IMG/VR virus record: IMGVR_UViG_3300034170_000057
Length of the DNA: 64,000 nucleotides
Reading direction: 5' to 3' (one strand)
Source: a virus
Taxonomy: Duplodnaviria; Caudoviricetes
Made by a program: the position numbers and the translations under genes. This document shows, piece by piece, positions 4,704 through 57,729 of this stretch. Numbering within the stretch: the first letter of the stretch is position 1; each line of letters starts with the position of its first letter. The notes under the pieces are model-generated. The model was not told the DNA's origin. It searched no databases and was given only the letters and a program-made list of their open reading frames with translations.

Positions 4704-4713
4704 TATTTACAGT
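4704..4713 (-). promoter_or_regulatory. ACTGTAAATA motif (putative phage promoter)
   Basis: Exact intergenic copy 42 nt before ATG 4662; near copy ACTGTAAATT at 4744-4753. Confidence 0.65.
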
Positions 4714-4809
4714 TTTCTTGCACTGTACTTCCCTATGTAGAGAATTTACAGTTTTGTTCGGGGTGTCGCTGGCGCTCTCAGTCGAGGTCGCCAACGTACC
4801 GGGTGTCAG

Positions 4810-5367
4810 TTACTTTTTTACTTTCTTTTTGCCTTCGGTGATCGCGGTGACTTTGGCTTTCTTTTTCTTGCCATCGTCAGACGCTGCTTTCACGCCACGG
4901 CCCGAAGCCTGCGAGCCTTCGGTATCGGCTGCTTTGATTTCGTAGTCGCCAGCGGACAGATCGAAAGTGGCAACGCCGCCGTTTACGTCGGTAACGATTA
5001 CAGCATTACCTTCGAACTTCAGGGTGCCGGTGGCGCTGGTGAAAGCCTTGCGGCGCAGTACGGTAATGCTCCCGCCTTTGTCGTCGCCCAGCAGTTGCAG
5101 AACGGCGCTGTTTGCGAACACGGACACGACCATTTTCTTCGAGGCGCTGGTGGCCTTGTGGCGGAACACGGTGGTGGTCGCGGAACGGTTCATCAGGTAG
5201 CCCGGAACTTCGTCGGGAACTTCGCTGTAACCGGTCACGGTGAACAGGCCGGTCTTCATGCTGAACGGGGTTTTAGCGCTGGTGCCGGACAGCTTGCGAA
5301 TGGCTTTGTCCAAACGCGAAACTTTGGTGCGTGCTTTTGCTTTAACGTTTTTTTCTGGCTTAGCCAT
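4810..5367 (-). CDS. hypothetical protein with Lys-rich termini
   Basis: 185-aa ORF with strong codon bias. Confidence 0.75.
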   Translation of the reverse strand: MAKPEKNVKAKARTKVSRLDKAIRKLSGTSAKTPFSMKTGLFTVTGYSEVPDEVPGYLMNRSATTTVFRHKATSASKKMVVSVFANSAVLQLLGDDKGGSITVLRRKAFTSATGTLKFEGNAVIVTDVNGGVATFDLSAGDYEIKAADTEGSQASGRGVKAASDDGKKKKAKVTAITEGKKKVKK

Positions 5368-5372
5368 GGTTT

Positions 5373-6314
5373 TTAACTGCCTTTATGCTTGAGCTTGGAC
5401 GGCCCGGCCTTTTTCGTCGGGGCGGTGCGCGTCTTTGCGTTTGGGTTTGTCAGCCCGACGGAAACAATTACGTTCGCGTCGATATGATCGTCTTTGTTAA
5501 CAGCGTCGGCTTCGGCACCCGGCTCGGCACATAGTGCGGAGAAGAGAACCAGAAGGTTAGGCCGTACAGTGAAATTAGAAACATCAAATGCAACGGCAAT
5601 CTGCGTCTGAATCTTAGTAGCAGATGCAAAGTTTTTGATTACCTGCCGATACCCCAGTTCAAAGGTATTCAGCAATTCAGCAGGATCGGAAGTCTGACTG
5701 GTCAAGCTGGCTGCGTGGATATGTACGCGGATAACCAGATGAATAATATTTACAGTTTTCGATTTCTCTGCGGTGTACTGCGTGACGCTGGTAGAGAAAT
5801 AATCACCGCGTGCAATGGAAAAATCGAGGCCTTGTTGTTCGAACGCAACGCCGCCGAACGCATCCTGCAATTGAACGTGCAGTGTGTCGATCAAACCGGT
5901 GATACGTTGCTGCAATACTGCGTCTTCGCAAACGATCAGGTACTGTTCCAGTTCGAGGCCCTGAAGGAATTCGTAAAGCGATTCAAGCGGTTGGATTGCT
6001 GCGCCGTTGAACTTGCGGGTCAGTGGACGATAAAGCGAGATTTCGTTATCGGCCTCTTCGAAGTTTCCGGCTTCATAGGCAATCACAGGTGTGAATGACT
6101 TATGTGCCTCTACTACTTCATTTACAGTATTCAGCACAGCGCCGAACACTACTTCCACGCGGGGCACGATACGCACCGGAAATTCACCAGTGGTTTCAGC
6201 CGGGATATTCGCTTTATTGCGAGTTACGTTTTCCGGTTCGGCAGCGGTGCCCAACTGGCGTTCGCTCGATTGCAATTGTTGCTTTTGTTTATCCTGATAG
6301 GAAATGTCAGTCAC
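5373..6314 (-). CDS. hypothetical protein
   Basis: 313-aa ORF; ATGA overlap with upstream gene. Confidence 0.75.
   Translation of the reverse strand: MTDISYQDKQKQQLQSSERQLGTAAEPENVTRNKANIPAETTGEFPVRIVPRVEVVFGAVLNTVNEVVEAHKSFTPVIAYEAGNFEEADNEISLYRPLTRKFNGAAIQPLESLYEFLQGLELEQYLIVCEDAVLQQRITGLIDTLHVQLQDAFGGVAFEQQGLDFSIARGDYFSTSVTQYTAEKSKTVNIIHLVIRVHIHAASLTSQTSDPAELLNTFELGYRQVIKNFASATKIQTQIAVAFDVSNFTVRPNLLVLFSALCAEPGAEADAVNKDDHIDANVIVSVGLTNPNAKTRTAPTKKAGPSKLKHKGS
5747..5756 (-). promoter_or_regulatory. ACTGTAAATA motif, intragenic
   Basis: Exact copy read as ACT-GTA-AAT (TVN). Confidence 0.5.
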
Positions 6315-55866: not shown

Positions 55867-55889
55867 AAGGGGGCCATGCGCCCCCTTTT
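55867..55889 (+). terminator. intrinsic terminator
   Basis: GGGGGC-CATGC-GCCCCC-TTTT. Confidence 0.8.
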
Positions 55890-55926
55890 GTCGGTTTGTG
55901 GTGCAATTTGCGGTTAGGGGGAATGT

Positions 55927-56715
55927 ATGGCTAAGGTGAAAAGTTCCGGTGTGAAAGTACGCACCGTGCGCGGGGGCGATGACGACGACGTTCGTGTTGA
56001 TGATCGCGGCAAACTTCGCAATAAACACCTTGACGACGGTCGTGGCCCATCCGTTAAGAAAAAGAAAAAGGTTAAAGTCGAAAAACACGAAGCAATCGTG
56101 ATCGAGGATAACACTTTCAAAGTTGGGCAAGATCCAATCAAGAAAAAGAAAAAGAAAGCGCTGGAAGGGGAATTGCTTCCCGGCTCCAAATCTCTGCGCA
56201 CAGAACTCATGTTGCCAGCTGGCGGCGTAGCTCTGAAAAAGAAAGCGAAAGGCAAAGCCACCACGATTGCAGCGGTGGAAGAATACGTACACCTACCGGC
56301 CCCGGTCGATGAATACGATGCGGAAACTCGCCGTATTTTTGAGCAATTGATTCAGACTGCTCAACGTCTCGAAGAACAGATGGAAGATCGCATTTACAAC
56401 AAAGACGTTTATGCGCTGAATACCATCTATTCGCAGATTCGCGAAGTGATTGCCGACCTGCGTGCAACCCGCGATATTTCTGCACAGGTTTCCGAACTGG
56501 AAGCGATTGTGATGCGTCCGTATCAGCAACTGATCGCACAAGGTTTTACCGATATTTACTTCCACATGATGGGCGCGATTTCCAAGTTTATCAAAGACGA
56601 AGACGAACGCGCAGAAGTACACAAAAAACTGAAAGATACTTTGGGTGAAGTTGCGGCCTCCGTGACTGAAGAATATCCAAAGGCATTGGATCGCATGAGG
56701 AAGGTATTGCTATGA
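55927..56715 (+). CDS. helical protein with poly-Lys N-terminus (terminase small subunit-like?)
   Basis: KKKKKVKV, KKKKKKA, helical C-domain; coupled to an HNH gene. Confidence 0.55.
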   Translation: MAKVKSSGVKVRTVRGGDDDDVRVDDRGKLRNKHLDDGRGPSVKKKKKVKVEKHEAIVIEDNTFKVGQDPIKKKKKKALEGELLPGSKSLRTELMLPAGGVALKKKAKGKATTIAAVEEYVHLPAPVDEYDAETRRIFEQLIQTAQRLEEQMEDRIYNKDVYALNTIYSQIREVIADLRATRDISAQVSELEAIVMRPYQQLIAQGFTDIYFHMMGAISKFIKDEDERAEVHKKLKDTLGEVAASVTEEYPKALDRMRKVLL

Positions 56716-57065
56716 GGCCGACGCGTGTTGCCCCTAAACGGGTTAAGAGTGTTGCAAGCGGGCCGAAGAAAGCAAAAGTGGTGGCTAAAGTACGCCGCGC
56801 CTCTTCCGTTGTTTACGGCGACCGCTCCGAGTGGATGGCAATTCGTGCGAAGGTAATTGCACGCGACGGAAACAAATGCACGAAATGTCCGAACACCACT
56901 TATTTGCAGGTCGATCACATTCGCCCCGCCAGTGCTGGTGGACAGACCGTAATGCACAACCTGCGTACCCTTTGCGCCGACTGCCACGCCGCACAACACA
57001 GCAGCCGACATTCCAAACATCTAATCCTAGCGAAGAAGAAAAAAGATGCTAAAGATGCCACCTGA
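56712..57065 (+). CDS. HNH endonuclease
   Basis: RDGNKCTKC..QVDHIRP..GG..NLRTLCADCH. Confidence 0.92.
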   Translation: MRPTRVAPKRVKSVASGPKKAKVVAKVRRASSVVYGDRSEWMAIRAKVIARDGNKCTKCPNTTYLQVDHIRPASAGGQTVMHNLRTLCADCHAAQHSSRHSKHLILAKKKKDAKDAT

Positions 57066-57729
57066 CATTGAGCCGGAATTCGCCGGTTCGTGGGAAGCGT
57101 TTTTAGAATTACCCGATGTAAAAAAACTTGAACCAAAAGTATTGAAAGAGTGTTTTCGAATCCTTTTGGGACAGGCTGGGGTAAAGGTCAAAACGCTCCA
57201 CACACTGAAGGATTTCTTTACTGTAAATAAACTGTATGGCGCATTCAATTCAGCGCTTACAGCCAAGTTTCTTTTGTATCATCTGAAACCCGTTAAGCAC
57301 ACGTTTGAAGTCGTGCTGGATGCTGACGACCTGACCAACGTTGTGTACGGTTTCAAGATCGTGGGCAAAGTTAAAATGAAAGCCCAACGGTTTAGCTTGG
57401 ATTATTTGCTGAATCGTTTGGTGCAGGTCAAGGTTCTAAAGGAATTGCCAGACACATTGCAGCTTGATCGACGCACCATCATGCGCGGCGGCGAAAAAAC
57501 TACAATCGTAGCTGATCGCTGCCCCGGAACAATCCGCCAAGTAAAACCTTGGCAGGAAAATGTGGTGGTTGTAAACCAAGCCATGAAAATCAGTATTGCG
57601 CGACTGAAAGGTGATCACCTCTATTTGCATTATGAGGTTTTCTTCCATACAGAAATGCCGCACTACCCGCTATTAGAAAAAGAACTCTTAGCCGTCTGGC
57701 GAAGGGCCTCAATTGGAGACTTACGATGA
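57046..57729 (+). CDS. hypothetical protein
   Basis: 227 aa. Confidence 0.7.
   Translation: MLKMPPDIEPEFAGSWEAFLELPDVKKLEPKVLKECFRILLGQAGVKVKTLHTLKDFFTVNKLYGAFNSALTAKFLLYHLKPVKHTFEVVLDADDLTNVVYGFKIVGKVKMKAQRFSLDYLLNRLVQVKVLKELPDTLQLDRRTIMRGGEKTTIVADRCPGTIRQVKPWQENVVVVNQAMKISIARLKGDHLYLHYEVFFHTEMPHYPLLEKELLAVWRRASIGDLR
57220..57229 (+). promoter_or_regulatory. ACTGTAAATA motif, intragenic
   Basis: Exact copy (FTVNK codons). Confidence 0.5.

Follow-up and report, generated by a model that had tools for sequence, protein, structure and literature searches.

A probable phage-specific promoter for replication genes in an uncultured Lu11-like jumbo phage

Background

The late promoters of phage T4 carry the sequence TATAAATA and work with the sigma factor gp55, the co-activator gp33 and the clamp gp45. 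The gp36 promoters of phiEco32 and the extended -10 middle/late promoters of Thermus phage P23-45 are independent of a -35 element; in these two systems a phage factor redirects the host core polymerase to a one-element promoter specific to phage middle and late genes. Here we describe the 10-mer ACTGTAAATA, which recurs in a 64,000-nt stretch of DNA from a virus of the Caudoviricetes (IMG/VR record IMGVR_UViG_3300034170_000057; the whole stretch is called the window below) and almost certainly serves this phage as a promoter signal of its own for DNA-replication genes. A sequence-only reading of the window had proposed a phage-specific promoter, and the proposal is now supported by over-representation, co-orientation with genes, conservation, the placement of terminators, a step in metatranscriptome depth and the annotation of phage Lu11.

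Both the T4 late promoter and the window motif are single AT-rich elements of 8-9 bp near -10 with no -35. The part TGTAAATA of the window motif is one base off T4 TATAAATA and its logo has no upstream hexamer, in agreement with the likeness to T4 and the absence of a shared -35 that the sequence-only reading had pointed out. Unlike the T4 consensus, the window motif has an invariant G at position 2 and requires an upstream C and an A-tract; the consensus itself, as CTATAAATA, has only 6 copies in the four sequences compared below, with no orientation bias. Related lineages use TGTAAAG or TGTAAAC, and the motif precedes replication genes (primase, clamp loader, polymerase, topoisomerase, nuclease) rather than virion genes. 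Nor does it agree with the extended -10 element of sigma-70 (TGn followed by TATAAT), as its TG abuts TAAATA and the equivalent of T(-7) is A, G, T or C. From the phiEco32 and P23-45 promoters it differs in that the promoter sequences are unrelated, the sigma families are different and the promoter of the Lu11 group is a predicted one.

Much closer is a set of features in Lu11, a phage whose genome was reportedly announced by Adriaenssens et al. in 2012 (J Virol 86:6369). In its record (NC_017972 / JQ768459), 16-nt features named 'putative middle/late promoter' begin exactly at matches to CTGTAAATA; they include 124262-124277, 124340-124355, 107991 onward, 93595-93610, 97492-97507, 99476-99491, 67310-67325, 85320-85335, 58553-58568 and 11172-11187, and host-type early promoters are marked separately. 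The core CTGTAAATA, the orientation and the distance to the start codon are all shared with the window motif, and features stand at sites orthologous to those of the window before the clamp-loader gene, before the gp143 homologue and, as a tandem pair, before the gp164 homologue. The region upstream of the Lu11 primase (106017) has the exact core, yet the record gives it no promoter feature. Between 1 and 125 kb of Lu11 the annotated features are nearly all intergenic, and none lies on the deep intragenic copies, which are equally conserved. The Lu11 annotation is a prediction. A signal of this kind has been predicted since 2012, and the window is a new instance of it.

Iyer et al. 2021 (PMC7824862) assign Lu11 to jumbo-phage group 2.2, whose members have sigma factors and an ortholog of gp33, and Lu11-like phages belong to the 'Lupandier' group of jumbo myophages (PMC7412058). 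Full-text literature searches with TGTAAATA and CTGTAAATA, whose reach did not extend to the Lu11 genome paper, found no paper testing the motif, and a literature search found none mentioning phage HRDY3, a relative used here. The paper on the Dickeya phage is silent on promoters and on sigma factors.

Results and discussion

Occurrence of the motif in the window

The window contains 11 exact copies of ACTGTAAATA, where 0.04 would be expected from dinucleotide-preserving shuffles; not one of 100 shuffles had more than one copy. With one mismatch allowed there are 20 sites against 1.9 expected. The exact copies lie on the minus strand at 4704, 5747, 6412, 6763, 13406, 14811 and 21130 and on the plus strand at 30726, 36650, 47220 and 57220. 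According to a gene map drawn from open reading frames (ORFs) and codon statistics, minus-strand genes extend to about 23.0 kb and are followed by a short block of plus- and minus-strand genes and, from 27.3 kb, by plus-strand genes. Every copy in the window matches the local gene direction, as do all 24 copies of the strict core CTGTAAA.

Five exact copies are clearly intergenic (4704, 14811, 21130, 30726 and 36650), the copy at 47220 lies just past a stop codon, and five are within genes (5747, 6412, 6763, 13406 and 57220). Motif and start codon are separated by 41 nt at 4704, 33 at 21130 and 31 at 36650, and for near copies by 34 nt at 23052, 38 at 26549, 57 at 8409 and 36 at 32186. The intragenic exact copies are all in the frame ACT-GTA-AAT, which is partly forced because one of the other frames has TAA and the third gives TAA or TAG if A or G follows the motif.

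These results agree with most of what had been seen by inspection of the letters. The coordinates and strands of the 11 exact copies were right, their over-representation is confirmed by the shuffles, and co-orientation with local genes holds throughout the window. The reading ACT-GTA-AAT of the intragenic copies is borne out, with the constraint from stop codons just described. Distances of 32-59 nt to the gene starts had been proposed, and the measured gaps are 31-57 nt. Placement behind terminators or stop codons was likewise found, with a terminator at 21158-21187 before the copy at 21130 and a stop codon 15 nt before that at 47220. All six near copies that had been named exist; the positions of the three on the minus strand, given as 4744, 6120 and 8410, are each one base off and should be 4743, 6119 and 8409.

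Conservation in Lu11-like phages

Judging from its DNA, the window belongs to an uncultured Lu11-like jumbo phage of Pseudomonas. Its identity is about 77% to Pseudomonas phage HRDY3 (313.7 kb) and, over a 1.9-kb stretch, about 74% to Lu11 (280.5 kb), from which we regard it as distinct on this figure. The IMG/VR contig L053 has 100% identity to the first 127 bases of the window and extends the genome leftward. Since the window covers 64 kb only, genome-wide counts were taken from relatives: the comparison set consisted of the window and three complete genomes, those of HRDY3, Lu11 and Dickeya phage JA11, with genes called by one simple method.

The core CTGTAAATA occurs 11 times in the window, 18 times in HRDY3, 33 times in Lu11 and 16 times in JA11. 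All 78 copies are co-oriented with genes, so that the orientation bias, whose absence genome-wide would have spoken against a promoter, extends beyond the window. Of these copies 38 are intergenic, about a sevenfold enrichment over the 7-8% of non-coding DNA. The strict core CTGTAAA has 236 copies, 216 of them co-oriented and 82 intergenic, as against a mean of 100 copies, 48% co-oriented and 10% intergenic, for composition-matched 7-mers in the same four sequences. Positions 8 and 9 of the motif tolerate change, the variants CTGTAAACA and CTGTAAATG being co-oriented in 18/18 and 26/26 cases in the four sequences. Among intergenic k-mers, words of the motif show the strongest enrichment in each genome tested, two further complete IMG/VR genomes included, and the next start codon is most often 25-45 nt away (30% of copies, compared with 10% of random co-oriented positions).

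A logo of 49 intergenic copies is A-rich at -3 to -1. A purine stands 7 nt past the motif in 47 of the 49, and it is preceded by T in 30. There is also an R-G-T-A preference downstream of the motif, within the 16-nt span of the Lu11 features. The flanking preferences of 26 deep intragenic copies match those of the intergenic ones.

At eight orthologous sites, all aligned with Lu11 and four also with HRDY3, the AAACTGTAAATA block is invariant. Four of them lie within protein-coding genes (13406, 57220, 6412 and 6763). Because the block is invariant while its flanks have diverged, the word must be selected at the level of DNA or RNA beyond the needs of the protein. At position 8, HRDY3, Lu11, JA11 and the window phage have T, the IMG/VR relative G003 has G and the relative G004 has C. 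These two genomes (loci L064 and L065) keep the core AAACTGTAAA; AAACTGTAAAG(G/A) is the dominant form in G003 and AAACTGTAAAC(T/A/C) in G004.

Terminators, host-type promoters and metatranscriptome depth

Strong intrinsic terminators lie directly upstream of several motif copies. The arrangement of a terminator followed by a motif, as at 21130, recurs at HRDY3 157700, 200597 and 248306 and at Lu11 67317 and 107991. The window has fewer matches to sigma-70-type promoters than expected (5 as compared with 13.7, and 9 as compared with 18.5), and some other signal must therefore start transcription there.

A peat metatranscriptome, run X1, contains 83% of the words sampled from 8 kb of the window, and its contigs on window positions 4001-24000 show no sequence differences and very unequal depths. 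Depth is 6.6 over 21203-21861 and 113.7 for the contig running from 21108 to 10124. The uncovered gap between them, 21109-21202 (94 nt), contains the terminator and the motif at 21130; nothing else covers it, because these two contigs by themselves already account for the binned depth of 75.2. Depth thus rises about 17-fold in the direction of transcription across a terminator. Such a step would not be expected of uniform DNA, and it hints at initiation within the gap, as would be predicted from a promoter at 21130 and a start near 21123. Two other breaks between X1 contigs, at 4254-4470 and 9984-10123, fall on low-complexity repeats and are not transcript ends; the first repeat is acidic and lies in the gene 4255-4662, the second is GCA-rich and lies in the gene 9617-11512. 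Runs X2, X5 and X16 contain diverged relatives only and yield no information on transcription.

In about 13 of 93 intergenic copies a stable hairpin follows within a few bases of the motif, beginning 8-15 nt from its first base, and in some of them it is followed by a T run. Motifs with an immediate hairpin are seen in the window at 8378-8418 and 14775-14820, both on the minus strand, and in JA11 at 14448, 20753, 23748, 29740, 195948 and 243551. Where the stem begins right after the motif, as at several JA11 sites and at window 14811, a start 7 nt past the motif would fall inside the 5' arm, as it would at most of the sites just listed. The layout suggests overlapping terminator and promoter elements, and the new transcript might then escape the terminator which stops incoming transcripts. 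We rejected such an overlap as a general rule, given that only about 13 of 93 copies have the hairpin and that the spacing at 8409 is 4 nt off that of its HRDY3 counterpart.

Proposed promoter and a phage sigma factor as its candidate reader

We consider it likely that ACTGTAAATA is the conserved part of a phage-specific promoter of the middle class in Lu11-like jumbo phages, that this promoter is a single element of the -10 type, and that it is read by a phage sigma factor. Its full form would be roughly AAA-CTGTAAAT-A, N5-6 and then T-A, around the strict core CTGTAAA. The host core RNA polymerase would carry the phage's own sigma-70-family factor, and the resulting holoenzyme would read TAAATA at about -12 to -7, CTG at -15 to -13 and the A-tract upstream, with no -35 element involved. 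Transcription would start at the conserved purine 7 nt past the motif. Copies just past terminators would restart transcription, copies inside genes would be internal promoters for the genes that follow, and the promoter would serve mainly genes of replication, recombination and nucleotide metabolism.

The candidate for the reader is encoded on contig L053 (3017-4036), about 3 kb left of the window. It is a protein of 339 residues assigned to PHROG 17569, 'RNA polymerase sigma factor', with 345 detectable relatives. The Pfam domain Sigma70_r2 was found in 60 of 77 family members, and Pfam region 4 in none of the 77. A profile of the family matches RpoD in regions 1.2-2.4 (E = 4e-9); a plain sequence search of the HRDY3 sigma against the PDB, in distinction to this profile search, gave no match. 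The predicted structure (mean predicted local distance difference test, pLDDT, 89.5) aligns with sigma-70 domain 2 with Z = 15.2 and a root-mean-square deviation of 3.5 Å over 218 residues, and alignments of the whole model stop near sigma-70 residue 584. When the C-terminal 112 residues were folded alone (pLDDT 78), the best Foldseek match had E = 6 and the best match of a wide VIA search had Z = 3.4, with no sigma listed. On these models a -35-reading domain in the phage sigma is neither shown nor excluded. A one-element promoter without a -35 box would fit a sigma in which no region 4 was detected.

A search of all ORFs of four genomes with the sigma profile found exactly one member of the family in each and no paralogue. 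In JA11 a copy of the motif lies directly upstream of the sigma gene. Near the sigma gene, PHROGs and Pfam revealed no second sigma-like or gp33-like gene, only genes of the Tad2-like and Tad3 types: L053:2222-2764 and L053:4247-4822, which flank it, encode a Thoeris anti-defence Tad2-like domain (E = 3e-18) and a Tad3 Thoeris-inhibitor domain (E = 5e-31). The sequence-only reading had suggested a search for a gp55-like factor. None was found in our searches, which did not use models of gp55 or gp33; the sigma of 339 residues is of the sigma-70 type, resembles RpoD in regions 1.2-2.4 and is thereby unlike the small gp55 of T4. That this sigma reads this motif is our inference.

Points against the proposal and alternative explanations

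Several observations weigh against the proposed promoter or against parts of it. The link between sigma and motif is circumstantial: the sigma of JA11 is 36% identical to that of the window phage and goes with the same motif, and closer sigmas (57-64% identical to the HRDY3 query) prefer G or C at position 8. According to Iyer et al. 2021 (PMC7824862), phages of the group may also carry a minimal sigma and an ortholog of gp33; either of these could be the true reader. The evidence from X1 is a single contig boundary, and contigs cannot show true RNA ends or strand; the transcription start is a predicted position. The primase gene has a near copy upstream and yet a low depth in X1. Finally, hairpins directly follow some copies (window 8409 and several in JA11), and a transcript that started upstream of the stem would terminate there; the start predicted at 8409 would hardly cut into the hairpin. 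A clean co-variation of sigma and motif was considered and rejected, since the JA11 sigma at 36% identity keeps the T-type motif and closer sigmas have G/C-type motifs. The region of the sigma recognition helix is variable and does not cleanly track position 8.

A more specific version of the proposal may be formulated. In it the phage sigma is derived from sigma-70, has lost the -35-reading domain and reads an extended upstream -10 element, AAACTGTAAA, whose last positions have drifted (T, G, C), possibly together with the recognition helix; some copies form the 5' arm of terminator hairpins with the start inside the stem, and copies in genes are internal promoters held against codon drift. 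Taken as a whole, this version is possible but tentative, and we would sooner doubt it than adopt it.

It might be argued that the motif is not the core of a promoter but the binding site of a phage activator or repressor beside the real promoter, in the manner of the T4 MotA box. Such a site would also be conserved at a fixed position before genes, several 'transcriptional regulator' genes are annotated in Lu11, and the drift of position 8 between lineages without an obvious matching change of the sigma would be easily understood. The downstream side of the motif speaks otherwise: the sole conserved feature there is the T-purine step at 6-7 nt, which suits a transcription start and not a -10 box some 12-20 nt away, and the logo has no second conserved hexamer. 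Moreover, the distance from motif to ATG goes down to about 20-30 nt, which leaves little room for an additional core promoter and a leader. We regard a regulator site as unlikely.

Somewhat less probable again is an element that acts in RNA, such as a processing or cleavage site, a stability element or the site of a translational regulator in polycistronic transcripts. Strict co-orientation with transcription, a position in 5' leaders 25-45 nt before start codons and the frequent adjoining hairpins would all be expected of it, and the step in X1 could in principle reflect unequal stability of the processed halves. Against this, several copies come right after strong intrinsic terminators, where little RNA is left to process, the 17-fold rise in depth proceeds along the direction of transcription across a terminator, and the motif sits at points in need of a promoter, the region being depleted of host-type ones.

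That the unmodified sigma-70 holoenzyme of the host reads the motif as an unusual extended -10 promoter, with no phage factor, we think very improbable. TAAATA keeps T(-12) and A(-11) of TATAAT and has TG just upstream; this TG, however, abuts the hexamer with no base in between, T(-7) and a -35 element are both missing, and the invariant C and the A-tract are not features of sigma-70 promoters. In addition, the motif ranks first among intergenic words in Pseudomonas and Dickeya phages alike, and every one of these phages has retained the phage sigma. A polar DNA signal outside transcription, of the Chi-like recombination type or orienting replication or packaging, would account for the switch of motif polarity near 23-27 kb together with gene orientation and AT skew, but can hardly be credited, since non-coding DNA, 7-8% of the total, contains about half of the copies, at a preferred distance from start codons, and a Chi- or KOPS-like signal would show neither.

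Genes that follow the motif, and a second motif

The probable promoter stands before the genes for primase, the clamp loader with two large downstream genes, the topoisomerase II subunits, the 5'-3' exonuclease and an endonuclease; in Lu11, DNA polymerase genes follow it as well. That it precedes primase and clamp loader had been noticed in the sequence-only reading and is correct, with a near copy 34 nt and an exact copy 31 nt before the respective ATGs.

A second motif, (G)TAATTTA(A/T), which includes TAATTTAA, is almost exclusively intergenic in the genomes of Pseudomonas phages (TAATTTAA in 9/9 HRDY3 copies and 11/13 Lu11 copies) and is enriched also in G003 and G004. It precedes structural blocks, for example the tail sheath gene of Lu11. 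In the window it occurs on the plus strand at 27256-27263, 48611-48618, 50212-50219 and 54964-54971, with gene starts about 20-70 nt downstream and, at one of the sites, a terminator immediately upstream. The Lu11 record, over 1-125 kb, has no annotation for TAATTTAA. We regard it as a candidate for the late promoter class. Since ACTGTAAATA stands at replication genes and TAATTTAA at structural blocks, the former looks like a middle and not a late promoter; doubts about a late class had been voiced before and appear justified by this division between replication or nuclease genes and structural blocks.

Individual sites

On the minus strand, the exact copy at 4704..4713 is intergenic, lies 41 nt before the ATG at 4662 and is the second of a tandem pair. 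The first, ACTGTAAATT at 4743..4752, is a near copy aligning with Lu11 124262; the pair is orthologous by alignment to Lu11 124262/124340, both annotated as putative middle/late promoters. Within the gene 5373-6314 there are an exact copy at 5747..5756, a candidate internal promoter with an A-rich upstream flank like that of intergenic copies, and a near copy, ACTGTAAATG, at 6119..6128. The gene 6311-7597 contains exact copies at 6412..6421, from which the next gene start (6314) is 97 nt on, and at 6763..6772, where the block is kept at Lu11 122331. At 6412 a 13-nt block is identical at Lu11 122685, between flanks that are about 55-60% identical as judged by eye from the alignment.

The near copy ACTGTAAATC at 8409..8418 is intergenic and is directly followed by an 11-bp terminator hairpin (8403-8378) and the ATG at 8351; motif and hairpin are found together also at HRDY3 145115, with a spacing that differs by 4 nt. 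The exact copy at 13406..13415 lies within the 5'-3' exonuclease gene (13239-14075), the next gene being 211 nt on, and is kept at HRDY3 150179 and Lu11 115605. That at 14811..14820 is intergenic; its last base opens a hairpin of at least 10 pairs, and a small gene begins 20-38 nt downstream. Its counterpart by gene order is Lu11 114217-114232, an annotated putative middle/late promoter.

The intergenic copy at 21130..21139 lies 33 nt before the ATG at 21096, with a predicted start near 21123, and just downstream of an intrinsic terminator at 21158..21187 on the same strand (a 13-pair stem and then a T run). It is kept, in the alignments, at HRDY3 157700 and at Lu11 107991, where it is a promoter feature. 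The remaining minus-strand site, 26549..26558, has the variant AATGTAAATA 38 nt before the ATG at 26510, and the identical variant is present at the orthologous sites of HRDY3 and Lu11.

On the plus strand, the near copy ACTGTAAATG at 23052..23061 is placed 34 nt before the primase ATG at 23096, and the motif upstream of primase is kept in HRDY3 and Lu11 (106017). An exact copy at 30726..30735 follows about 100 nt after a terminator at 30597-30622; by gene order its counterpart is Lu11 99476-99491, an annotated promoter. The stretch of about 470 nt past this motif (30742-31204, plus strand) has no long ORF, a folding z-score of -2.4 and no match in Rfam, and in Lu11 a gap of 592 nt likewise follows the counterpart. 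It could be a long leader, or contain small ORFs or a non-coding RNA. The variant ACTGTAAAAT at 32186..32195 stands at the end of the gene 31205-32209, 36 nt before the ATG at 32232, and corresponds by gene order, unaligned, to the exact motif of the promoter annotated at Lu11 97492-97507.

The exact copy at 36650..36659 lies 31 nt before the clamp-loader ATG at 36691, and its TAA is the stop codon of the upstream ORF. It is kept at HRDY3 172550 and, aligned and annotated as a promoter, at Lu11 93595-93610. At 47220..47229 the exact copy comes 15 nt after the upstream stop codon (47204), and the next small ORF could start at 47211, 47232 or 47289; judged from gene order, without alignment, its probable counterpart is Lu11 85320-85335, annotated as a promoter before an endonuclease gene. 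The last exact copy, 57220..57229, is within the gene 57046-57729. HRDY3 (192687) shares an identical block of about 27 nt with the window here, and Lu11 (75241) retains the core.

Elsewhere in the window, 152-1843 on the minus strand encodes a protein of 563 residues with an intein splicing domain (Pfam PF14890, E = 2e-14). An ORF of more than 1950 residues with SNF2-related and helicase C-terminal domains, which corresponds to the 'DNA helicase' gp100 of Lu11, runs on the plus strand from 58139 to 64000 and off the end. The whole window has no match to an Rfam family and no tRNA gene.

Conclusions

There is little new in kind here, the motif having been predicted in Lu11. What goes beyond the Lu11 annotation is the conserved purine, the depth step in X1, the depletion of host-type promoters, the sigma without a detectable region 4 and the second motif. 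The motif provides a ready transcription map for a large clade of jumbo phages which rely on the host polymerase and have received little study, spanning Lu11, HRDY3, PaBG-like phages, the 'hairy' myophages of Dickeya and Erwinia and numerous uncultured genomes of about 300 kb. By sequence, three classes of promoter become separable: host-type early promoters, CTGTAAAT at replication genes and TAATTTAA at virion genes. If confirmed, the promoter would be usable as a compact phage-specific expression signal.

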